NCBI GenBank assembly: GCA_963737255.1
Contig: CAVTSB010000001.1
Coordinates: forward strand, 386,254-450,253
Source of the DNA: an uncultured Bacteroidales bacterium
Lineage (GTDB): Bacteria > Bacteroidota > Bacteroidia > Bacteroidales > VadinHA17
Direction of reading: 5' to 3'
Length of the DNA: 64,000 nucleotides
Shown here: positions 51,726 to 64,000 of the stretch, piece after piece
Numbering within the stretch: the first letter of the stretch is position 1
Layout of the letters: the number at the start of each line of letters is the position of its first letter
The notes under the pieces: generated by a model
The model's input: only the letters and a program-made list of their open reading frames with translations
The model's database searches: none
What the model was told of the DNA's origin: nothing
Program-made: the position numbers and the translations under genes

Positions 51726-53939
51726 CTATTCACTTATTTCATACACAACGCTCGTCAGAGGCTGTGCGGATCCGACATTAAGACCGGCCTTCATCAGGTA
51801 ATCTCCGGTGTAGGTTCTGCCGCTTTCTGACATCATCGGACGCCGTCCTTCGTTTGACACGTTTATCTCCTGCACCTTGTATGTTCTGGCAGGGTCGAGT
51901 CCCTGGAGCTTCACACGATTAAATGATTCGCCGTATCCTGAGTTAAGTGTGTAACCGAAAAGGAGTGCTTTGCTTTTTGAATCGTTCACATACATCAGCA
52001 CCGCCCTGTTCTCATCATAAGGTGAGACAAGCCTGAAAAGATCGCCATGCCAGATCACATCACTAAGCCTCTTATAACTGGCAACCGCATTCTGGCTGAA
52101 TTTCAATTCATTTTCCGTCATGCCGCTAACCTCAATATCATAACCCATTTTCCCCATCATGGCAACATCGGTCCTGAATTTAAGCGATTGTTTGCCCCAT
52201 GAGGTTACATGGTTGCAGACTGAAATGGCAGGGAAAAAATATGAGTAACCCCATTGCATATATATCCTTTCCACAGGATCGGTATTATCGCTGGCCCAGA
52301 ACTCAGTAAAATATCTCAGGGCACCGTAATCAACCCTCCCGCCTCCGCCCGAGCAAAGCATTACAGGAAGCCTGGGGTATTTCTGCCGCAATTTGTCAAG
52401 GACCCCATAGAGGCAGTTAACATAATCGATATATAAATGTGATTGCCTGTCTTTCAGATAAACGGAATAGGCGTTGGTCATCATCCTGTTGCAATCCCAT
52501 TTGATAAAGGCGATCCCCGGATTGGCAGTCAGCATTCCGTCGACGATATTGTAGACGAACTCCTGGACCTTCGGATTTGTAAGGTCAAGCACGAGCTGGT
52601 TTCTATAATAGTGCTCTGGCCTGTTCGGAAGCTTCAGTATCCAGTCGGGGTGGGTTTCATAGAGTTCGCTTTTCGGATTCACCATCTCGGGTTCTATCCA
52701 AATGCCGAATTTTACGCCCCTGGCATCAGCTTCCTTTACAAGATAGCCCAGACCGTTGGGCAGCTTTGCCCTGTTCTCCTGCCAGTCACCCAGCCCGGCC
52801 CGGTCGTTGCTTCTTGGATATTTGTTTGCAAACCAGCCATCGTCGAGCAGAAACAGATCGAGCCCCATCTTTTTGGTTTCATCAAGGATCCCTGTCAGCT
52901 TTTTTTCATCGAAATTGAAACCGGTCGACTCCCAGTTGTTAAGGAGTGTAAGCCTTGAACCGGTGCCGTCAAGCACTCCGTATTTCCTTGCCCAGAGGTG
53001 GAGGTTACGGCTTGCCTGGCCTTTCCCGGCTGCTGACCAGGTATAGATCATTGATGGGGTTTTAAATACTCTTCCGGGCTCAAGCGAATACTCCGATGCA
53101 AAAGGATTGATTCCCGAGATCACCCTGAGTGACCCTTTTTCATCAATTTCAAACAGAAACCTGAAGTTGCCTGACCATCCGAGTGTGCCAGCAATAACTT
53201 CTCCCTTGTTTTCGTCCGATTTTTCATTCAGCGACAGCAGAAATACCGGTGTCTGGTACATATGTGCCCTAGTACCCAGCTTTGAATCGAGTATCCTGAT
53301 GCCGGGAGTAAGCTCACTCTCCTTTATCTTCATCTCTTCCGCCCAATCGCCATGGAACTGTGTCAACCAGTATCTTTCCGCATCGAAATGGACCATGGAG
53401 GAGGCATAATTAAAAATTGTTACTGGCTTTTTTTCATCATGCCTGATTTCAGCCCATTGTTCGATTACATCTTCATTATAATAGGTTTTGAAGTTAAGTG
53501 TAACCTCAAACGGGTATACCGGATCCCTGAGCAGTATTTTGCTCAGGGTAACATTACTTTTTCCGTCACTCGTTTCAATAAACTGATCAACAAATTTCAA
53601 TTCAAGCGAAGGATTTCCGTCATTATGGGTAGCACGAACAGCAGGTTCAAAAAGGTTGTCGGTGCCGAATGTAGCATATACAAGGTGACCTGCATCCCTC
53701 GTCTGCATTAATTGATCGGTATTCTCAAGCCTGCTGCCGAAGTATGCCTGGTAAAGCCTTCCGTCCCTTGCGCTGACCCTGAAAACAAGGCTTATATTCT
53801 TAGTTCCGAATTCTATAATCCGGTCCTGTGCCTGTTGCGCTCCCGGTCTTCCCCCGGAGGGAGGTCCCTGCGGATCCTGGGAGGGTGAAACCTGATTTAA
53901 AGTAAAAAGAGTAATGATCAACAAGATAAGCTTCTTCAT
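51726..53939 (-). CDS. Alpha-galactosidase, glycoside hydrolase family 36
   Basis: LLNNWE, LDDGWF, FGIWIEPE, IKWDCNR, CSGGGGR and WASDNTD. Signal peptide. Confidence 0.95.
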   Translation of the reverse strand: MKKLILLIITLFTLNQVSPSQDPQGPPSGGRPGAQQAQDRIIEFGTKNISLVFRVSARDGRLYQAYFGSRLENTDQLMQTRDAGHLVYATFGTDNLFEPAVRATHNDGNPSLELKFVDQFIETSDGKSNVTLSKILLRDPVYPFEVTLNFKTYYNEDVIEQWAEIRHDEKKPVTIFNYASSMVHFDAERYWLTQFHGDWAEEMKIKESELTPGIRILDSKLGTRAHMYQTPVFLLSLNEKSDENKGEVIAGTLGWSGNFRFLFEIDEKGSLRVISGINPFASEYSLEPGRVFKTPSMIYTWSAAGKGQASRNLHLWARKYGVLDGTGSRLTLLNNWESTGFNFDEKKLTGILDETKKMGLDLFLLDDGWFANKYPRSNDRAGLGDWQENRAKLPNGLGYLVKEADARGVKFGIWIEPEMVNPKSELYETHPDWILKLPNRPEHYYRNQLVLDLTNPKVQEFVYNIVDGMLTANPGIAFIKWDCNRMMTNAYSVYLKDRQSHLYIDYVNCLYGVLDKLRQKYPRLPVMLCSGGGGRVDYGALRYFTEFWASDNTDPVERIYMQWGYSYFFPAISVCNHVTSWGKQSLKFRTDVAMMGKMGYDIEVSGMTENELKFSQNAVASYKRLSDVIWHGDLFRLVSPYDENRAVLMYVNDSKSKALLFGYTLNSGYGESFNRVKLQGLDPARTYKVQEINVSNEGRRPMMSESGRTYTGDYLMKAGLNVGSAQPLTSVVYEISE

Positions 53940-54147
53940 AGCGTTATATATAATTAATGGTAAAAATCCGCCGGAGTAGTTCAGGCCATAAAGATATTAC
54001 TCCAATCTGAAACATAAAAATAATTCAGGTCCAGGAAATACAGGCAGGCTTTTATCTTTAAAAAGCAAATGCTATTTTGTAATGGTTATTCTTAAGTTAT
54101 TCTCTTATTTTTGGGGAAATTTTTATTTCCCTAAACCTTCAACAATA

Positions 54148-56817
54148 ATGATCAGGAAAAACTTAAATCTCTGGATCCGGTTTGCCATTATCCTTTTCAT
54201 CCTGCTTCCGGTTAATTATCTGTCCATTTCCGCTTTTTGCCAGCAGGATACATTGCAGAAGCAGACTTCTGCCTTCAGACAGCCTGAATATACGACAACC
54301 CGTCTTGTGACACCAAAACCTGTGATTGACGGGAAACTTGATGACGAGTGCTGGAAGCAAGGGAACTGGGCCGGTGATTACCATCAATTTATACCCAACG
54401 AGGGTGCGAAACCAACGTATCCCACTGAAATGAATCTCCAGTATGATGATAAGAACATCTATATAGCTTTCCGTGCATTTGATCCCGAGCCGGGCAAGGT
54501 ACACAGATATGCCGGTTTAAGGGATGAGATTGTGGGCGATATGGTCGGTGTGAACTTCGACAGCTATCGTGATTACAGGACCGGATTTGAATTCACAATA
54601 ACAGCATGGGGACAAAAGGTTGACCTGGTTTTGTTCAATCCAAGTGACTGGGATTTTAACTGGAATGCAGTTTGGAAAGGAAAGGTGGGGCTTGAGGATT
54701 CTGCCTGGGTGGCCGAGATGGAGATCCCGTTAAACCAGTTGCGTTACAGCAAGGAGGATGAGCAGGTATGGGGCATGCACACCTGGAGATGGATAGACAG
54801 GTACCAGGAAGAAAGCAACTGGGAACGTCAGTCCAAAATCGGTCCGGGTATGCTTTATAACTACGGGGAGTTCAAGGGGATCAGGGGACTGAAAAAATCA
54901 CACAGGCTCGAGATCATGCCATTCGTTCTTGGTGATCTGAAAACAATTGAAGAGGTGCCGGGGGATCCCTATACAAAAAACGGAAGGATTTGGGGAGGAA
55001 ACCTTGGTCTGGATGCCAAGATAGGAGTATCAAGCAACTTTACGGTGGATCTTACGGTAAATCCCGATTTCGGACAGGTTGAATCGGACCCGTCAGTTAT
55101 GAATTTAACGGCATTTGAGACTTTCTACGAGGAAAAGCGGCCCTTCTTCCTTGAGGGGCTGACAATATTCGATTACAAATTCGGGCAGGAAAAGCTTTTC
55201 TATTCCAGGCGGATAGGGCATCAACCCTCTCTCGGCATCAACCCGGGGCCCGGAAATTATGTGAAATCACCCGATAAGACGACCATCATGAGTGCGGCAA
55301 AATTCAGCGGAACAACTTCAAAGGGTTTGTCGGTTGGATTGATACAGAGTGTGACAGCAAATGAGTTTGCCAGGATAACCGGTCCGGAAGGAGACGAAAC
55401 GAAACAATTAGTCGAGCCTCTTACCAACTACCTGGTTGCCCGTGTTCAGAAGGGATACAAGGCAGGAAATACAATGATAGGGGGAATGTTCACTTCAACA
55501 AACCGTTTCATTGAAAACGATGAGCTTGAGTTTCTCAGCAATAATGCATATACGGGAGGGATCGATCTGTTGCATCACTGGAACAATAAGGAGTTCTTTG
55601 TTGATGCAAAATTCGTCGGGAGTTATGTTGACGGCAGCCAGGAATCGATCAGATTGCTTCAGGAATCATCTGCCAGGTATTACCAGCGGCCCGGCGCCGA
55701 TTACCTCAACTACGATATTTCAAAAACCAGCCTGAGCGGTCTCGGAGGCAATATAAAGGTCGGAAAGGGTTCCGGGGGGCATTGGAGATATTCGACGGCT
55801 CTTTCATTTCTTACACCGGGTCTGGAGCTTAATGATATGGGATACCTGAGGACAGCTGATGAAATTGAAAATACCAATGAGATTTCATATCTGATTACGA
55901 AGCCTGTTTCAATCTTCAGGGCTTTCTATTTCGGTTTCGAACAAAGGAATTCCTGGAATTTCAATGGCACCTACCTTGGATCGGACGGAGAGGTGGCCTT
56001 GTCAACGGAGTTTAAGAACCAATGGAGTTTTTCAACTCAGGTTGCATACCACTCAAAAGACATTGACACGAAGATATTACGGGGTGGTTTTGATATGATG
56101 ATGCCGGCAAGCATGAATTTTTCCGCCAGGCTTAAAACTGATGCGTCGAAAAAGACGATAGCGTCACTTGCATACATATACCAGAAAGCCGGAAATAATT
56201 CTGCATCGTCATTTGCAATTGAGCCGGCGGTTTCAATCCGCCCGTTCAGCATGCTCAAAGTAGATGTAACTGCAACATATGAAAAGAACAAGGATGAACT
56301 TCAGTATGTTGATACAAAGGTTCTTACAGAACCTGGCAGACGGTATATCCTGGGCACTATCAACCAGGAAACTCTTGGCCTGACATTCAGGGCTGACCTT
56401 AATCTGACGCCGGAATTCTCCGTTCAATATTACGGGAGCCCTTTCATTTCGAAGGGAAGTTATTCGGAACTGAAGAGGGTGACAAATCCGGAAGCTTCGG
56501 TTTACAGCGACAGGTTCGAACTCTTTGATGACCCTCAGCTAGTTGATGGTCAATATCAGCTGTATGATCAGGACGGTGAATTTCCGGAATACTACACTGT
56601 CAGCAATCCGGATTTCAATTTCCACCAGTTCCGTTCCAACTTTGTTGCAAAATGGGAATACCGCCTCGGATCATTCATCTATTTTGTATGGTCGAGCGAC
56701 CGGACGGGAAGCAATCCTGACTCGGGTTCCTCTTTCGGTGAATCATACCGTTTTTTGGGAGATGCGTTTCCTGAAAATATCTTTCTTGTTAAACTAAACT
56801 ACTGGTTTTCATTGTGA
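54148..56817 (+). CDS. CBM9-like domain plus DUF5916-like outer-membrane protein
   Basis: Signal peptide, PVIDGKLDD..W, W.AEMEIP..QLRY, DLTVNPDFGQVESD, EKRPFFLEG and FYSRRIG. C-terminus VKLNYWFSL is typical of a barrel end. Start placed at MIRKN. Confidence 0.85.
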   Translation: MIRKNLNLWIRFAIILFILLPVNYLSISAFCQQDTLQKQTSAFRQPEYTTTRLVTPKPVIDGKLDDECWKQGNWAGDYHQFIPNEGAKPTYPTEMNLQYDDKNIYIAFRAFDPEPGKVHRYAGLRDEIVGDMVGVNFDSYRDYRTGFEFTITAWGQKVDLVLFNPSDWDFNWNAVWKGKVGLEDSAWVAEMEIPLNQLRYSKEDEQVWGMHTWRWIDRYQEESNWERQSKIGPGMLYNYGEFKGIRGLKKSHRLEIMPFVLGDLKTIEEVPGDPYTKNGRIWGGNLGLDAKIGVSSNFTVDLTVNPDFGQVESDPSVMNLTAFETFYEEKRPFFLEGLTIFDYKFGQEKLFYSRRIGHQPSLGINPGPGNYVKSPDKTTIMSAAKFSGTTSKGLSVGLIQSVTANEFARITGPEGDETKQLVEPLTNYLVARVQKGYKAGNTMIGGMFTSTNRFIENDELEFLSNNAYTGGIDLLHHWNNKEFFVDAKFVGSYVDGSQESIRLLQESSARYYQRPGADYLNYDISKTSLSGLGGNIKVGKGSGGHWRYSTALSFLTPGLELNDMGYLRTADEIENTNEISYLITKPVSIFRAFYFGFEQRNSWNFNGTYLGSDGEVALSTEFKNQWSFSTQVAYHSKDIDTKILRGGFDMMMPASMNFSARLKTDASKKTIASLAYIYQKAGNNSASSFAIEPAVSIRPFSMLKVDVTATYEKNKDELQYVDTKVLTEPGRRYILGTINQETLGLTFRADLNLTPEFSVQYYGSPFISKGSYSELKRVTNPEASVYSDRFELFDDPQLVDGQYQLYDQDGEFPEYYTVSNPDFNFHQFRSNFVAKWEYRLGSFIYFVWSSDRTGSNPDSGSSFGESYRFLGDAFPENIFLVKLNYWFSL

Positions 56818-56996
56818 CCGCAAAAAGTTAATCATATAAAACCGTAATGTTCATCTTTGAAATGGTTCAGGTTATCAAAATAATGGTCTTTTTCTTTGGT
56901 GGGATGATAAAATTCCCCAATTTTGAGAGATTGATTTGAACCCTGGCCTGAAAAGATCTTGTTTGAATTACATTCGTTACCGTAGAAGTTCAGATA

Positions 56997-57356
56997 ATGA
57001 AAATACTCATTTGTGAAGATAATCCGATGGCACTGAAGACTCTTGCGGTTGTTCTTGAACGGGAGGGGTATGAGGCGGACACAGCGGAAGACGGGAATAT
57101 TGCTCTGGAATCGCTTAAAAAGAATGATTATGATCTTCTGGTTATGGATATACATCTTCCATACAGGAGCGGACTTGAGCTGGTTAAATATGTCAGGTCC
57201 GACCAGGGTAAAGATACTCCTGCTCTCATACTGACAGCATTCAGCGATCCACAGATGCAGCGTCAGGCTGGTGAATTGGGGATCAGCGGTTATATTGTAA
57301 AACCATTTAATCCTGCAGAGCTGATTGCAAGGATCAAATCAATTCTCAACAAGTAA
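56997..57356 (+). CDS. Stand-alone response regulator receiver (CheY-like)
   Basis: ILICEDN, phosphoacceptor MDIHLP, LTA and KPF. 119 aa with no output domain. Confidence 0.95.
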   Translation: MKILICEDNPMALKTLAVVLEREGYEADTAEDGNIALESLKKNDYDLLVMDIHLPYRSGLELVKYVRSDQGKDTPALILTAFSDPQMQRQAGELGISGYIVKPFNPAELIARIKSILNK

Positions 57357-57357
57357 C

Positions 57358-58437
57358 ATGGGCAGACCGTTAATAATTTTGTTTGTTGGGCTTTTCATAA
57401 ACACCCTGTTGAATAACCCGCAGCTTTATTCACAGGAAAACTATAATCCCGAAACCGAATACCTAAGGATCAGAACAATGGCATTTGATGGGGATTATGC
57501 ATCTGCAGCCGCTGCCGCCCGCAAGCTTGTCAATGCCTATCCAACTTACGGTGATGCCCGCATCCTTCTCGGCAGGATCCTGGCCTGGCAGAAGGATTAC
57601 GAACAGGCCGCCGCGGTAATTGACACTCTTCTTATGACTGAACCTGATAATGCCGATGCTCTGTCGGCCAGAAAGGATATTTCACTTTGGTCAAAGGTAA
57701 ACACCCCAGTCGCCACTGATCTCAGAGCCGGGTATTATTTCGACACATTCTCCGAACCATATAATAGATTCTGGCAGGTTTTCAGCGCCGGGGCCGGACA
57801 CAGGTTCAAATGGGGACCGGCCGCTGCAGGAGTTAACATTGGAAACCTGCACATTAACGGCGATACAACCGTGACAGCTACCGAATATCAAATTGAAGCA
57901 GAGGCTTATCCGCGTCTTTCAAATAAGAATTACGCCTACCTGGCTTATGCCTACAGTCCCGGAACATACTTCCCGACGCACAGGGCCGCGGTTGAACTGT
58001 GGCAGGTATTGCCGGCCGGGTGGGCAGTTTCTGCAGGGTTGAATTATTATTATTTCGACAGGAATATTTTCATCGCACTGGCATCAGTTGAAAAATATTT
58101 TGGTAAGTACTGGCTTTCAGGCAAGTGCTATATTTATTTCAAGGATGATGGCCCGACAACTTCATTTTATTTCAATGCACGGCGTTATTTCAATGATATT
58201 GACTATCTTCAGTTAACACTGGGAACCGGTACCGCTCCTGATGAACCATTTGATATACAATCAGATATCATGCGCCTGAGTGCAAACAGCGTCAGGCTGA
58301 CCTATTATGGCAGGGTGTCACGCAGACTCTTTATCAGGGTAGGCGCAGGCTATTCCAGGGAGGAATATGAGGAATCGGTTCTCAGAAACAGGTTTGAAGG
58401 GAATCTTAACTTAATTTATGCTATCAAAATGAAGTGA
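57358..58437 (+). CDS. YaiO-family outer-membrane beta-barrel with N-terminal TPR
   Basis: Signal peptide. TPR-like AAARKLVNAYPTYGDARILLGRILAWQKDY..P.NADA. Barrel strands with EAEAYP, YAYLAY and FP.HR. C-terminal NLNLIY. Start placed at ATG 57358. Confidence 0.82.
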   Translation: MGRPLIILFVGLFINTLLNNPQLYSQENYNPETEYLRIRTMAFDGDYASAAAAARKLVNAYPTYGDARILLGRILAWQKDYEQAAAVIDTLLMTEPDNADALSARKDISLWSKVNTPVATDLRAGYYFDTFSEPYNRFWQVFSAGAGHRFKWGPAAAGVNIGNLHINGDTTVTATEYQIEAEAYPRLSNKNYAYLAYAYSPGTYFPTHRAAVELWQVLPAGWAVSAGLNYYYFDRNIFIALASVEKYFGKYWLSGKCYIYFKDDGPTTSFYFNARRYFNDIDYLQLTLGTGTAPDEPFDIQSDIMRLSANSVRLTYYGRVSRRLFIRVGAGYSREEYEESVLRNRFEGNLNLIYAIKMK

Positions 58438-60107
58438 TGAAATACAGGCTGCTAATCATATTATCACTTCTCTGTTTTACTGCTGCTAAGTCACATACTT
58501 TCCCTGTTAAATCCTCTTCTACCGCAGTCCGTCCGACTCCCGTATATTACAATGATGCCATCAGTCTTTTTACACGTGAATATAACAGTACTAAAATCGA
58601 TAATCTTTTAACTCTGACACAGGAGATTAAACCTATTCAGATAGGTGCGTTCAGGCAAAAGTCAAATGCCGACAAGATGTATTTCCAGATAGCTGAAGTA
58701 CTGGGTGAGGACGTGATGGTGGTTGAAGAGGACGGTTACTACAAGGTCAGGGTAACAACACTTGATAAGGAAAAAATCAGGGATTTCCTGGAACCTGAAG
58801 AGGTTGTAACAGACATTTCCCCGATGGATCAAACAGCTGTATTGTCTGATGATACGCTTGCATATACGGAACCGGCAAAGGATTCCATCCTTACCGAACC
58901 TGTTATTGACACTTTGCCTCAATCATTCGGCAGCCTGCCTGTATCATATACCGTTGGCGATACTTCGACGGCAGTGCAACAGTCCACAGTGACCAAGCGG
59001 AAATTTTTCCCTCTGAACAGCGAAAGTCCCTGGCTCAAGAGAATTAACTATTTCGGAAAATCATTTGCCCTGGTAAATGCCCTTATTATTACTATAATCC
59101 TGTCAATCGCAACGATGATCATAATGCTTATTGTGATCCTTCTCAACAGGGCTAAGATGGAAAGGGAGGAGCATTTAAGGCAATATCTTGCCGAGACCTA
59201 CCAGGGGATGATAATCGACTATCTTTTTACCGACAGCAGTCCGGACAGGTTCCGGCCGATTGCATCCGATACCTATAGAAGGCAGGCTCTGATCGACCAG
59301 ATGATCGATGTCAGTGTCAATCTGAAAGGCGATGCCGAGGAGAAACTTGGGGGCCTCTATCTTTATCTTGGTCTTGACGGCGATTCGATCAGGCGTGCAA
59401 ATGATTTCCGCTGGCATAAGAAGATCAAGGGATTCCGGGAACTTGCGTTTATGAATATCAAGGATGCAAATCATTTGATGTACAAAGCCCTGAATTCCAA
59501 GAATGAGATCCTCAGGATGGAAGCCCAGATTGCACTCGTGCGGCTTAGCGATGATGATCCGTTCGGTTTTTTATTTCACCTTATAAGGCCTTTTTCCCTG
59601 TGGGAACAGATCACCCTTCATGAGCTTATGATCCAGCATGACCTGCCGGTACCTGAATTCAAAAAATGGCTCAAGGCTTCTAATCCGACAGTTGTAATGT
59701 TTGCACTCAGGATGATCAGGGAGTTCAGACAAACAGGTGCGGAGGATGATGTCAGGGAAATTCTCGATCATACCTCGCCTGAGGTCAGGTGCCTTGCTGT
59801 GCAGGTTGCGGGAGATCTTGAAATGCGCTCCACGCTTGAGCCGATGAAGAAGATGTACAAGAATCAGGATTATCAAACCTGTGTTGAGATAATTAAATCG
59901 ATGGCCAAGATGCCCGATCCGTCACTGATGGGATTCCTTAAACTGGTCCTGGATAAGGAAGATGATGTCCAGTTGCAGATCGAAGCCACCAAGGCTATTG
60001 AAAACAATGGTGAAGAAGGGGTACGAACTCTTGTTAAATTGATGAAATCGGAATATAAGAACTATAATATTATTGTCAGACATGTACTTGACCGAAGAAT
60101 ATACTAA
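58437..60107 (+). CDS. Membrane protein: signal peptide, SPOR-like domain, low-complexity linker, single TM segment, cytoplasmic HEAT/ARM-like repeats
   Basis: IQIGAFRQKSNA..EEDGYYKVRV (SPOR signature). TM ALVNALIITIILSIATMIIMLIVILL. HEAT-like ILRMEAQIALV, PEVRCLAVQVAG and QLQIEATKAI. The ATG overlaps the upstream TGA (TGATG). Confidence 0.82.
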   Translation: MKYRLLIILSLLCFTAAKSHTFPVKSSSTAVRPTPVYYNDAISLFTREYNSTKIDNLLTLTQEIKPIQIGAFRQKSNADKMYFQIAEVLGEDVMVVEEDGYYKVRVTTLDKEKIRDFLEPEEVVTDISPMDQTAVLSDDTLAYTEPAKDSILTEPVIDTLPQSFGSLPVSYTVGDTSTAVQQSTVTKRKFFPLNSESPWLKRINYFGKSFALVNALIITIILSIATMIIMLIVILLNRAKMEREEHLRQYLAETYQGMIIDYLFTDSSPDRFRPIASDTYRRQALIDQMIDVSVNLKGDAEEKLGGLYLYLGLDGDSIRRANDFRWHKKIKGFRELAFMNIKDANHLMYKALNSKNEILRMEAQIALVRLSDDDPFGFLFHLIRPFSLWEQITLHELMIQHDLPVPEFKKWLKASNPTVVMFALRMIREFRQTGAEDDVREILDHTSPEVRCLAVQVAGDLEMRSTLEPMKKMYKNQDYQTCVEIIKSMAKMPDPSLMGFLKLVLDKEDDVQLQIEATKAIENNGEEGVRTLVKLMKSEYKNYNIIVRHVLDRRIY

Positions 60108-60112
60108 CTGAA

Positions 60113-61549
60113 ATGGGATTTATTTTTGGACATATTATCTTTTTCCTTACGCTGTTCCTGTTCGTATCATATCTTTTGCTTGGTATCTTTTCGGCCCTGG
60201 CGCTCCGTAAATACCTGCGGAAAAACAGCTACATAAACTACAATTCGCTGGTGCTTTCTCCGCTCAGCCCGAAGATTTCGATCATAGCTCCGGCTTTTAA
60301 CGAAAGTAAATCCATTATTGATAATATCCGGACCCTTCTTTCACTGTACTATAACAACTTTGAAGTGATCATCGTCAATGACGGATCGACTGACAATACG
60401 TTTGAACTGGTAAAGGAAGCCTATGACCTGATCAGGGTCAACTATTATTTCGATTACAGGATCCCATGTGAAAGAATTAAAGGAGTTTACAGGTCAAAGA
60501 ATCCTTCTTATAACAGGTTGACAGTAATTGACAAGAACAACGGAGGGAAAGCCGATTCGCTCAATGCAGGAATAAATATCTGTCACAGCGGGTTATTCGT
60601 TTCAATCGATGCCGACTCAATTATTGAAGCCGATTCAATACTGAAGCTCGTGAAACCATTCTTGGAAGAGAAAGAACGCAAGGTTATAGGAACGGGGGGG
60701 GTGATCAGGATTGTTAATTCATGCGATGTTGAAAGAGGACATATCAGGGAGATAAAAATCCCTTCCAAGATATTGCCGAGACTTCAGGTACTTGAATATA
60801 CACGGGCATTTTTACTTGGCAGAATGGCCTGGAGCCATCTTGACGGACTTATGCTGATCTCCGGTGCAATGGGTATATTTGACAGGGAAACGGTGATCAG
60901 GGCGGGGGGTTACAGTATCAACACGGTAGGGGAAGATATGGAGCTGGTACTGAGGATGCGCCGCTATATGACTGATAATAATCAGAAATATGAGGTTACG
61001 TACATTCCTGACCCTTTATGCTGGACGGAGGTACCTTCAGACCTCAAATCATTGCGTAAGCAGAGAACCCGCTGGACACGCGGTCTTGTGGAATCACTCC
61101 GAACACACCACCATATTTTCTTCAATGCCAAATATGGCAAACTTGGCATACTTGGCTATCCTTACTGGTTTTTCTTTGAGTGGATGTCCCCACTGATCGC
61201 TTTTGCCGGATTCATCTATACGATCTATCTTATAATTACAAATGCGCTCAACTGGCCTTTCTACCTTCTTCTTTTTGTTTTTGTCTACACTTTTGCAGTG
61301 AGCCTTTCAACATGGGCAGTTCTTTTTGAAGAGATCACATTCCATAAATACAAGAGGAAGAGAGATGTCCTGAAACTCCTCTCAATTGCCCTCTTTGAAC
61401 CCTTCTTCTATCCTGTGCATACCTACTTTGCAGTACGCGGTAACCTCGAAGCAATGAGAGGAAAAAAAGGATGGGGGAGTGCCGAGCGCAATGGCTTTGA
61501 CAAGAAAAAGAAGTCAAGAAGGAAATCAGGCGGAAACAACGATTTTTAA
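60113..61549 (+). CDS. Processive membrane glycosyltransferase family 2 (PgaC/IcaA-like polysaccharide synthase)
   Basis: IIAPAFNE, VNDGSTD, NGGKAD.LN, IDAD, SGA, GEDME and QRTRW (D,D,D,QxxRW). One N-terminal and several C-terminal TM segments. Confidence 0.94.
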   Translation: MGFIFGHIIFFLTLFLFVSYLLLGIFSALALRKYLRKNSYINYNSLVLSPLSPKISIIAPAFNESKSIIDNIRTLLSLYYNNFEVIIVNDGSTDNTFELVKEAYDLIRVNYYFDYRIPCERIKGVYRSKNPSYNRLTVIDKNNGGKADSLNAGINICHSGLFVSIDADSIIEADSILKLVKPFLEEKERKVIGTGGVIRIVNSCDVERGHIREIKIPSKILPRLQVLEYTRAFLLGRMAWSHLDGLMLISGAMGIFDRETVIRAGGYSINTVGEDMELVLRMRRYMTDNNQKYEVTYIPDPLCWTEVPSDLKSLRKQRTRWTRGLVESLRTHHHIFFNAKYGKLGILGYPYWFFFEWMSPLIAFAGFIYTIYLIITNALNWPFYLLLFVFVYTFAVSLSTWAVLFEEITFHKYKRKRDVLKLLSIALFEPFFYPVHTYFAVRGNLEAMRGKKGWGSAERNGFDKKKKSRRKSGGNNDF

Positions 61550-64000
61550 TCGGTGAAACCCGGGATAGCAGTCAATCCGGATCTTACAACCTGATACGAT
61601 TTTTTCTCGCTGGCAACTGTTGGTGGAACGATAAGCCATTTTGGCCATGTGTATCTGCTGTCAGATGAGGTCACAACACCGTCAAGATAGACTGAAACAG
61701 CAATACCATCGGAATTTGCTGTCGATATTTCATAATTGTAACCTCCGTCATAGGAAACCGCCCCGTCAATAACCTTCATCTGTGTCGGATCATAGAAATA
61801 AAGCAGTGTCCAGGGTATCCTGACCTTTATCTTATTCGCGTTCCATGCGACAGCTGTTTTTTGGCCAAAGCTGAAATCCGGTGAATTTTCAAATGGTAGC
61901 TTGCCAATTTCCTGTTTTTTCAGCGTGTTGCCATCATTTATCCACTCCATTAGTTTCCATGGGGCTCCATCGGTGACAGTGCTTTGAAATTTCTGGACCG
62001 AATGGTTAGTGAGATCAAAACGCGGCGTAAGTCCGTTCATATCGTAAGCTTCGGTAACATGGTACAAGGCTGTGTCTTCACCGAGGGTCATTGCAAGCAT
62101 GAATTCCGACCTGTTTGTAAGTTTCTTCCCGTTGGGAAGCTCCGATTCTCCCAAACCCCTCAGGTAGGTGTCGAAAGCGACAATTACCGTATCTCCATCT
62201 GATAATACCCCATTGGTGCTGATCTCAAGATAAAAATAGCTGTTGTCGTTCGTTGCACTTATTGTTTCAACACGACCCCCGGGGTTATCCGTATCAAACG
62301 ATACCAACGGAAGAGTGTTTTCCTGGTCGAAGGTCAGAAGCCCGAAGTTCTGCTCGGGTGATGTGAGGTTATGCCAGATCTGCCGTGTAGGTATCATGGT
62401 CCCTCCCGAGTAAAGTCCGTAAGCTTCAAGGTAGGTTACAATCCAGGTGGGTTTGAACCATTCATCCATCCATGCGAACATGAAGCCGCCCGCACATCCT
62501 GAACTGATTATATTGTGCATCATCCTCATGTTCTTTTCTCCCTGCTGCTGCTCGGAATAGCCTCCATGATGCATTTCACTGAACGACTGATGTGCGCTTC
62601 CCCAGCTCGACGGAACCCCGAATTCGGCTATTATCAGCGGCATTCCCGAATAATGTTCTTTTAAGGCATTCAGATAACCCAGGTAGCTGTTTGGTCCCTC
62701 AGCGTCGCTGTAATTCTGATATGACAATTCCTCGCTGATGAAGTTCGGGTAGTAGGGGTAAGCGTGGTAGCTTGCGAATATCCCGGCCTGCTGGCCTTTC
62801 ACCAGGATTTTTGTAATGTCATAATCTGCTTTGTCCTCATCTGTGAATATTTCAGTAGGGTGATTCAGCGGATCAAGTGTTGGCCAGCTTGAAACGCTGA
62901 CAGGCCGTTTGACAGAGTATTTTTGGAATTCATATGTTACTGTTTCGTCAAGCATCCGGGTGACAAAAACTTCTGATGCTGTGGCTCCGGAAATGTCAAA
63001 CTGATTGCCGGAGAACGCTGTTAATGAAGGATTTGAATTATTTGTTGAGTCCACCTCCTGGGGACTTATCTCCCTTGCTATAATATATCCGGCTGTCCAG
63101 CGCGAGATATCAGTCAGGTATCTTCCGTATGATTTTCCGTACCTGAAGGCAATATCGCCGTTACCGTTTATGCAATCGATCACCTCGCGGATCTCTTTCA
63201 CGAAAGGAGTGACCCGGTTTAAAAGATTATAGGCAGAAGGATTATGGCGGTCTTCAACTTCTTCAAGCCACATTCCCTGGAACAGGAGCAGAGGATTATC
63301 AGTATGCCTTTCGTTATAATCTGCCAGTTTTTCATAAAAAACAGGCGGATGCAAAGTATAGACACGAATGCTGTTGAACCCTGCTTCGCCCATGTTTTTT
63401 ATCCACTCCTCATACATTTCTGCCGTTATCGCGTAAGCAATCTCCCCGGGGAAGGTTCCAGGAGGAGAAGATCCGAGGTTGATGCCCTTAAGGAGGAGTG
63501 ACCTGTAATCAGTTCCGGTATGCATGGCGATATTGTCGGTTGTGGTCCTGAACGGCATATCCTGTTTAAGGGTTATCTCAAAATTGATGACTGTATCTCT
63601 GGCAATGCTTATATCGGTGAGCCTGAGCGAATAATAGCTCTGGCATGTCACAGCAGTCACTACCGGAAAACGCAGCCTGCCCGACTGGGGAGGGGTGACC
63701 GGCGGCATCATGACCGGCTGAAGGGCAGTACCGGCAGAATATGAGGTGATACCTGTTGCCTTTATCAGTTTGCCTGACCTGGTTTTTCCCTTGAAGGTGA
63801 CGGCATAAACATAGAATCCGTCCTGCAGAGGTGCTCCGCCCTGGTTACACCCATCCCACACTATCTGGTAACTGCCGGCTTCAACTGAATTAAAAAGGAC
63901 TTCATAAACCTTCTGTCCGGAAAAATTGTAGATGTTGAAACGGATATCACCCTGACTGTTAATTATAAACGGAATATTTACGGAATGGCTGAAAGGATTA
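61546..64000 (-). CDS. Clan GH-A-like TIM-barrel glycoside hydrolase with an upstream FlgD-Ig/T9SS-CTD-like domain (5' end beyond the window)
   Basis: The frame stays open from 63999 (NPFSHSVNIPF..FNIYNFSGQKV..AGSYQIVWDG..DGFYVY). Barrel motifs LKGINLG, GFNSIRVYT, SYHAYPYYP, IIAEFG, GGFMFAWMDEWFK and EQNFGL. Confidence 0.8.
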   Translation of the reverse strand, partial: NPFSHSVNIPFIINSQGDIRFNIYNFSGQKVYEVLFNSVEAGSYQIVWDGCNQGGAPLQDGFYVYAVTFKGKTRSGKLIKATGITSYSAGTALQPVMMPPVTPPQSGRLRFPVVTAVTCQSYYSLRLTDISIARDTVINFEITLKQDMPFRTTTDNIAMHTGTDYRSLLLKGINLGSSPPGTFPGEIAYAITAEMYEEWIKNMGEAGFNSIRVYTLHPPVFYEKLADYNERHTDNPLLLFQGMWLEEVEDRHNPSAYNLLNRVTPFVKEIREVIDCINGNGDIAFRYGKSYGRYLTDISRWTAGYIIAREISPQEVDSTNNSNPSLTAFSGNQFDISGATASEVFVTRMLDETVTYEFQKYSVKRPVSVSSWPTLDPLNHPTEIFTDEDKADYDITKILVKGQQAGIFASYHAYPYYPNFISEELSYQNYSDAEGPNSYLGYLNALKEHYSGMPLIIAEFGVPSSWGSAHQSFSEMHHGGYSEQQQGEKNMRMMHNIISSGCAGGFMFAWMDEWFKPTWIVTYLEAYGLYSGGTMIPTRQIWHNLTSPEQNFGLLTFDQENTLPLVSFDTDNPGGRVETISATNDNSYFYLEISTNGVLSDGDTVIVAFDTYLRGLGESELPNGKKLTNRSEFMLAMTLGEDTALYHVTEAYDMNGLTPRFDLTNHSVQKFQSTVTDGAPWKLMEWINDGNTLKKQEIGKLPFENSPDFSFGQKTAVAWNANKIKVRIPWTLLYFYDPTQMKVIDGAVSYDGGYNYEISTANSDGIAVSVYLDGVVTSSDSRYTWPKWLIVPPTVASEKKSYQVVRSGLTAIPGFTD

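Follow-up and report, generated by a model that had tools for sequence, protein, structure and literature searches.

A receiver-YaiO-HEAT-GT2 operon of an uncultured Bacteroidales bacterium is apparently an undescribed synthase-dependent exopolysaccharide variant with likely phosphorelay control

The stretch of DNA analysed here, 64,000 nucleotides from the genome of an uncultured Bacteroidales bacterium (lineage VadinHA17) and called the window throughout, carries in its last part a compact operon for a lone receiver, a YaiO-family outer-membrane barrel, a membrane-anchored HEAT protein and a family 2 glycosyltransferase (GT2), with a convergent glycoside hydrolase (GH) gene behind it. A sequence-only reading had likened these genes to a synthase-dependent exopolysaccharide machine. 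The motifs and the order of the genes now support this analogy, as does the finding that the barrel is confined to diderm organisms. The features are as follows.

56895..56925, forward strand: likely promoter (TTTG, 19 nt, CAATTTTG), about 70 nt 5' of the receiver gene
56997..57356, forward strand: lone receiver, 119 aa; PF00072 at 102 bits; residues E7, D8, D51, T80 and K102
57358..58437, forward strand: short TPR plus predicted YaiO-family outer-membrane barrel, 359 aa from ATG; likely export pore
58437..60107, forward strand: bitopic HEAT protein, 556 aa; a GTG at 58434 is an alternative start
58635..58763, forward strand: SPOR-like stretch, residues 67-109 of the HEAT protein (PF05036 at 20.9 bits, cut-off 21)
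59082..59138, forward strand: transmembrane helix, residues 216-234 of the HEAT protein (hydropathy scan)
60113..61549, forward strand: processive-type GT2 synthase, 478 aa, with D,D,D,QxxRW motifs
61546..64000 within the window and on to 64326 in the genome, reverse strand: clan GH-A glycoside hydrolase, convergent, 926 aa

Open reading frames (ORFs) and domain profiles agree with the four packed genes first read from the letters, with intergenic gaps of 1, -1 and 5 nt from receiver to GT2, and the tail-to-tail overlap between the hydrolase 3' end and the GT2 stop is borne out at 4 nt. Our results show that this module is real and widespread; it represents an apparently undescribed variant of synthase-dependent systems that has a HEAT protein as partner and is likely controlled by a phosphorelay. 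The GT2 carries the motifs of a processive enzyme (DGSTD90, KADSLN146, DAD166, GED273 and QRTRW317), which are invariant over 67 homologues, and is present in single copy in the genome. A database search returned at least 7,041 homologues, of which the close ones are labelled PgaC there; a sequence search found no close relative of the GT2 among solved structures.

The barrel protein matches the YaiO family TIGR04390 with 93.6 bits (cut-off 32), PF19413 with 119 bits and TPR_19. Its model (pLDDT 90.8) shows five N-terminal helices and 14 strands, and by VIA-align is closest to CymA (Z 19.9), compared with 12.3 for PelB, 12.2 for the polysaccharide secretin entry 4y25 and 11.8 for BcsC. The pairing of TPR and outer-membrane barrel that marks synthase-dependent systems was thus recovered in the domain matches, in the model and in the diderm counts given below. 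The HEAT protein matches HEAT_2 with 50.9 bits; its own SPOR match is marginal, and SPOR matches seven of nine orthologues in the genus, five of them above the cut-off. Basic residues follow directly after its single transmembrane segment, so the HEAT repeats are likely cytoplasmic, and the N-terminal SPOR-like region is likely periplasmic. In a sequence search against solved structures the HEAT part found designed and generic repeats and no close relative, and an Atlas search returned generic HEAT clusters only. Some HEAT proteins of Flavobacteriaceae (e.g. L090:3574-4995) are extended at the C-terminus by as much as about 500 aa; in the one protein tested, this extension had no Pfam match.

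Conservation within the genus was examined in 36 genomes, 20 with and 16 without the GT2, and loci were fetched from 16 of the 20 positives. Since these genomes are kin and not independent, presence and absence are given as counts and not as a statistical test. Outside the genus, the GT2 occurs in 4 of 24 other families of the order. Receiver, YaiO, HEAT, GT2 and convergent hydrolase follow each other in the order of the window in all 16 fetched loci, although the HEAT or the hydrolase gene is split into pieces in four of them, and this constancy argues that the five-gene order is not due to chance. Absence of such co-occurrence from other genomes had been named beforehand as grounds for giving up the proposal. 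Orthologues of the receiver were found in 19 of the 20 GT2-positive and 0 of the 16 GT2-negative genomes, and the same numbers hold for the hydrolase; the only GT2-positive genome missing receiver or hydrolase, G017, is 70% complete.

Beyond the genus, a GTDB scan confirmed 505 loci, of which the best 78 were analysed; this sample is therefore biased towards similarity to the window, and the denominators of the following counts (73, 63 or 59) vary with the flank length available. In 71 of 73 loci from many phyla, no more than 2.5 kb separates a HEAT gene from the GT2. Receiver domains, of whatever type, occur within 5 kb in 49 of 63 loci; 41 of 59 have YaiO within 6 kb, and 11 of 59 have a histidine kinase near the GT2. 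When the loci were sorted by hand from record titles into diderm and monoderm, YaiO accompanied the GT2 in 41 of the 47 diderm loci and in none of the 12 monoderm ones. Eight of 12 plasmid matches were read: the gene order is receiver-barrel-HEAT-GT2 on a Mesorhizobium plasmid, receiver-TPR-HEAT-GT2 in Erythrobacter, receiver-HEAT-GT2 in Haloarcula, and hydrolase-HEAT-GT2 in Paenibacillus, Deinococcus and Planococcus. From locus counts and plasmid gene orders, HEAT and GT2 appear to form the core of the module; the restriction of the barrel to diderms suggests that it is added where an outer membrane exists, and the accessories vary. The expectation that related clusters would occur in other Bacteroidota was too narrow, as the module extends to other phyla and to haloarchaea.

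Several variants of the module were seen in the same sample. HEAT and GT2 are fused in L131, whereas the apparent fusions in L091, L103 and L118 turned out to be artefacts of ORF calling. The GT2 of L133 measures 957 aa, and its N-terminal half has no domain assignment. Haloarchaeal loci L051:6307-9254 and L105 have receiver-HEAT-GT2 without a barrel, and histidine kinases flank the L051 copy. In L049, L077, L080, L086 and L122 a long TPR-YaiO protein (about 1,000 aa) is followed by a DUF4838-type protein, and L077 and L080 each carry a pair of GT2 genes in tandem. Seven loci share a protein of about 390 aa next to the operon (among them L072:12482-13663; L075:7964-9130; L120:10326-11543; L059:102-1256); three of the four tested had no Pfam match and one had a weak peptidoglycan-binding match.

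Among known systems, E. coli PgaABCD is similar in having a small membrane partner, a TPR-barrel exporter and a hydrolase activity, and PgaC is the nearest E. coli GT2 (25.5% identity over 329 columns, profile E-value 7e-44). It differs in that the window has a HEAT protein in place of PgaD, a YaiO-type barrel predicted to be 14-stranded and a lone receiver, that the genome encodes no c-di-GMP enzymes, and that the module includes no conserved deacetylase. A deacetylase lies near one locus (L134); no systematic search for deacetylases was made. PgaC/IcaA (TIGR03937) is also the best NCBIfam match of the GT2, with 135.9 bits at a cut-off of 422.3, and neither BLASTP nor profiles matched E. coli PgaA, PgaB or PgaD to any protein of the window, nor were the PgaD/IcaD and PgaB/IcaB families recovered. 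Bcs and Nfr likewise combine a GT2 synthase with a TPR-barrel exporter, and Bcs includes an endoglucanase, but similarity is weak (profile E-values 5e-12 for BcsA and 8e-6 for NfrB). BcsA contains PilZ and is activated by c-di-GMP, and NfrB is annotated as c-di-GMP activated. Against the Bcs family TIGR03030 the GT2 reaches 36 bits where 699 are required, and BcsB found no match. In the yaiS-yaiP-yaiX-yaiO cluster of E. coli a YaiO barrel also adjoins a GT2 (profile E-values 2e-11 for YaiO and 1e-21 for YaiP), but this cluster encodes a deacetylase and an acyltransferase, has neither HEAT protein nor receiver, and its YaiP lacks QxxRW; judged by sequence, it shares only the barrel family. Nfr, which makes the phage N4 glycan, and Pga/Bcs are thus akin to the module in working principle: it would work as they do, yet it falls outside both the Pga and the Bcs families as these are delimited by their profiles.

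The Xag and Sfz-Sfb systems are GT2 operons tied to biofilm or stalk matrix in the accessible text of their descriptions (PMC3609779, PMC4643136). As described there, the XagB-like Sfz2 has about 690 aa, an N-terminal IPR007831 domain, a TED motif and a BcsB-like partner (PMC4643136, PMC8250860). These descriptions (PMC3609779, PMC4643136, PMC8250860, PMC3826837; accessible parts) set Xag/Sfz apart from the GT2 of the window with its 478 aa, its GED motif and no IPR007831 domain, and no Xanthomonas locus was among the best 78 of the 505 loci. Should the operon nevertheless be a divergent member of a described system, either that for poly-N-acetylglucosamine (PNAG; Pga/Ica) or Xanthomonas Xag and Sfz of iron oxidisers, this would agree with the PgaC labels of close homologues, with PgaC/IcaA as best NCBIfam match and with Xag being a GT2 biofilm operon. 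Given the score far below the TIGR03937 cut-off, the missing PgaA, PgaB and PgaD and the dissimilar Sfz2, we regard this as very improbable.

Alternatively, the GT2 product could remain in the envelope as a short oligosaccharide, a glycolipid or a periplasmic glucan, with a different role for the barrel. Only three strong hydrophobic segments were detected in the GT2, whereas the same scan gives five for PgaC and eight for BcsA; three are few for a translocating synthase, which weighs against export. The TPR is short and the barrel is predicted to have 14 strands, the GT2 also matches TIGR04242 with 38 bits, and QxxRW occurs in GT2s that do not make polymers such as NodC. Sulfatase/LTA-synthase-like proteins, often with TPRs, are encoded near the GT2 in 17 of 59 loci (L066:10423-12846; L067:2678-6211; L069:8992-12420) and are fused to it in at least two, which would also suit an envelope glycan. 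BcsG decorates cellulose, and by analogy these proteins may decorate the polymer. On the other side, the TPR-barrel accompanies the GT2 in diderms only, PgaC is its closest E. coli relative, and the linked hydrolase resembles endo-glucanases in its predicted fold. An envelope glycan seems quite improbable, and an exported polysaccharide is very probably the product of the operon.

The convergent hydrolase has no Pfam GH match in profile searches, and a sequence search found no close relative among solved structures. Its N-terminal domains are carboxypeptidase-regulatory-like and Ig-like. An Ig domain resembling the tails of type IX secretion substrates lies internally (residues ~108-182; window 63750-64000, reverse strand, and beyond) and not at the C-terminus; the location of the enzyme may be periplasm or surface. 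The model (pLDDT 86.1) adopts a clan GH-A barrel fold, for which the best match is the GH157 endo-beta-1,3-glucanase PDB 9g4n (Z 23.5, rmsd 2.5, 314 aligned residues, 18% identity); GH2 (Z 21.0) and other GH2 and GH5 enzymes at Z 20-21 follow about 2.5 Z lower. Catalytic-type Glu419 and Glu568 sit at clan GH-A positions and are kept in 24 of 25 and 25 of 25 aligned rows, respectively. The fold match together with the two glutamates suggests a beta-linked substrate and points weakly to beta-1,3-glucan. A glycan-trimming enzyme, as found in other synthase-dependent systems, is thus indicated by the GH-A fold, the conserved glutamates and the co-occurrence in the genus. Outside the genus a hydrolase is near the GT2 in only seven of 59 loci, all of them Firmicutes, so that the enzyme is better regarded as an accessory than as a core part.

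Upstream of the receiver gene, TTTG and CAATTTTG boxes are present in the window and in 10 of the 16 genus loci, the second box alone in two more and neither in four. TTTG-N19-CAATTTTG is likely a Bacteroidota-type promoter on the basis of its sequence, judged by what we take to be the -33/-7 consensus of this phylum. The gene directly 5' of the receiver encodes a DUF5916 protein (911 aa, window 54082-56817, forward strand), as in 12 of the 16 genus loci, and probably lies outside the operon because the likely promoter is situated between the two. An ordinary GH36 alpha-galactosidase (window 51726-53939, reverse strand) showed no link to the operon.

How the synthase might be controlled is indicated by what the genome lacks and by the receiver. 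The sequence-only reading had seen no PilZ- or GGDEF-like module in the operon, and this holds for the entire genome: at 98.9% completeness and with positive controls, GGDEF and PilZ returned zero matches. Domain profiles found no c-di-GMP parts (PilZ, MshEN or GGDEF) in the operon proteins, and the GT2 in particular has neither a PilZ nor a MshEN domain; the c-di-GMP activation of other synthase-dependent systems was thus not recovered. Of 67 operon receivers, all have Lys102 and 66 have the phosphorylatable Asp51.

A link to a known phosphorelay comes from Flavobacterium johnsoniae, for which the accessible part of preprint 10.64898/2026.07.01.735801 describes RgzA, a GAF hybrid kinase, and the adjoining RgzB, a lone receiver with Asp51. 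According to the same text, an activated mutant loses zorbs (mobile biofilm balls), aggregation and biofilm when rgzB is deleted and regains them with a plasmid-borne copy; what RgzB acts on is said there to be unknown. Its main text, as far as accessible, mentions no glycosyltransferase, YaiO, operon or Fjoh_3921-3923. Our targeted literature searches, which covered few subscription journals, also found no description of a YaiO/HEAT/GT2 module and 0 occurrences of Fjoh_3921-3923. The GT2 is present in 187 of 401 Flavobacterium genomes, and 20 loci were chosen from high-scoring hits in large genomes. All 20 have the order kinase, receiver, YaiO, HEAT, GT2, and their kinases match 12-15 of the 15 published RgzA residues. 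In genome G210, a 662-aa GAF-HisKA-HATPase-REC-Hpt kinase with 15 of 15 RgzA residues at zero offset is followed by a D51 receiver, YaiO, HEAT and GT2, with gaps of -1, 1 and 6 nt 3' of the receiver. A kinase with the RgzA fingerprint thus precedes the same block as in the window. Differences are that the Flavobacterium HEAT protein has 273 aa and no extension of SPOR length, that no hydrolase is linked, and that in the genome of the window no kinase is adjacent.

The receiver of the window shares 38% identity with the RgzB-like protein and is the best match of the latter in this genome. In the reverse direction, the RgzB-like protein was the top lone receiver in three of three Flavobacterium genomes, in G210 just below the receiver domain of RgzA itself. 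In a quick tree of 132 receivers over 121 columns, 53 operon receivers, the window receiver and the RgzB-like protein among them, group in one clade (SH-aLRT 97); 14 operon receivers, mostly from other phyla, remained outside it. With a leave-out profile the gap was narrow, with 120.2 bits for the window receiver and 119.0 for the next receiver of the genome. From these comparisons the window receiver is likely an RgzB orthologue. RgzA-like N-termini were found in 73 of the 401 Flavobacterium genomes, 67 of which are GT2-positive (hand count). At 14 kinase loci picked because they seemed operon-free (10 best matches and four second copies), no RgzB-like receiver, YaiO or HEAT gene lay beside the kinase in any case. 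Of the 10 genomes behind the best matches, which keep the kinase without the adjacent operon, nine were searched whole, and none contained an RgzB orthologue (best 35-37% or no match, control G118 90%; completeness of these genomes was not given). From the absence of the receiver in all nine it follows that RgzB is passed on with the synthase genes rather than with the kinase. Control by the receiver, as proposed from the sequence, hereby gains independent support; the route from receiver to HEAT protein is a proposal.

A number of observations weigh against this reading of the receiver. The tree was quick and short, and one long-branch row from outside any operon falls within the clade of 53. 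No kinase lies beside the operon in any of the 16 genus loci, and the closest RgzA-like kinase of the genome (G000:C2:527093-529090), which has a PAS-like input, was rejected as a dedicated partner as it occurs in 11 of 20 GT2-positive and seven of 16 GT2-negative genomes and thus does not follow the operon. The 5 kb around the GT2 contain no receiver in 14 of 63 loci, and in three Firmicutes/Mollicutes loci GGDEF-receiver proteins are encoded directly 5' of HEAT-GT2 (L109:6313-7914; L131:752-2773; L133:6549-7523). Taken together, these loci indicate that the control input varies, and c-di-GMP may enter the same module in the Firmicutes/Mollicutes lineages that have GGDEF-receiver proteins. 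ConA binds alpha-linked sugars. Zorb cores bind ConA and not WGA according to the accessible text of PMC8481357, so the product of an inverting GT2 fits poorly, exposed PNAG is argued against and beta-glucan is no obvious fit. Entries for HEAT, YaiO and Fjoh_392x are also absent from the accessible colonisation-screen supplements (PMC10936215), as would be anticipated for a pathway that is off by default; this absence is not support for it.

The effects of the activated kinase are likewise broader than matrix production: in the accessible part of 10.64898/2026.07.01.735801, RgzA* (S158R) shifts gliding-motor bias, reversal frequency and about 700 transcripts (~15%). For suppressors of RgzA*, sequencing in that preprint was confined to the rgzA region. 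The genome of the window encodes GldD and GldJ above cut-offs (G000:C2:712459-713013; G000:C6:347000-348448), which suggests gliding motility. The operon could therefore make and export a polysaccharide while the receiver acts elsewhere, on the gliding motor, in a further phosphorelay or on transcription, and is merely co-transcribed, for which the loci without a nearby receiver also speak. In this case, however, it would be difficult to explain why genomes that retain the kinase have lost the receiver along with the synthase genes, and why the same gene order occurs in haloarchaea, alphaproteobacteria and one actinobacterium. To our knowledge, these groups do not possess the gliding motor of Bacteroidota. 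Overall, we consider an action of the receiver elsewhere unlikely.

We favour, with moderate confidence in the model as a whole, a synthase-dependent exopolysaccharide machine under phosphorelay control. A hybrid histidine kinase, in Flavobacterium of the RgzA type, would phosphorylate Asp51 of the receiver. The receiver would in turn bind either the HEAT repeats on the cytoplasmic side or HEAT and GT2 in complex. Partnered in the membrane by the HEAT helix, the GT2 would then polymerise a beta-linked glycan and pass it to the periplasm, and the TPR could guide the chain to the YaiO barrel for export. In the lineage of the window, SPOR might tether the complex to peptidoglycan, and the hydrolase might trim or clear the chain. 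The likely outcome would be aggregation or a biofilm matrix. The polymer would most likely be a beta-glucan or a beta-hexosamine that differs from PNAG, which is the least certain step. More tentatively, and with somewhat less than even expectation, we suggest that throughout this family in bacteria and haloarchaea a CheY-like protein, once phosphorylated, binds a HEAT partner anchored in the membrane and directly switches on the synthase in place of c-di-GMP, and that in Flavobacterium this is the missing output of RgzAB that makes the zorb and biofilm matrix.

New in this study are the residue-level match to RgzA, a tree that supports RgzB orthology and the observation that RgzB and the synthase are lost together. 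As target of RgzB, the three genes that follow it in tight succession are an obvious candidate; the host is genetically tractable and non-pathogenic, and its constitutively active allele makes the idea directly testable. In the well-studied synthase-dependent secretion systems the switch is c-di-GMP, and the genome analysed here has no match to enzymes that make it. If our reading is true, gating of the synthase by a phosphorelay would explain how matrix production is turned on in such organisms.

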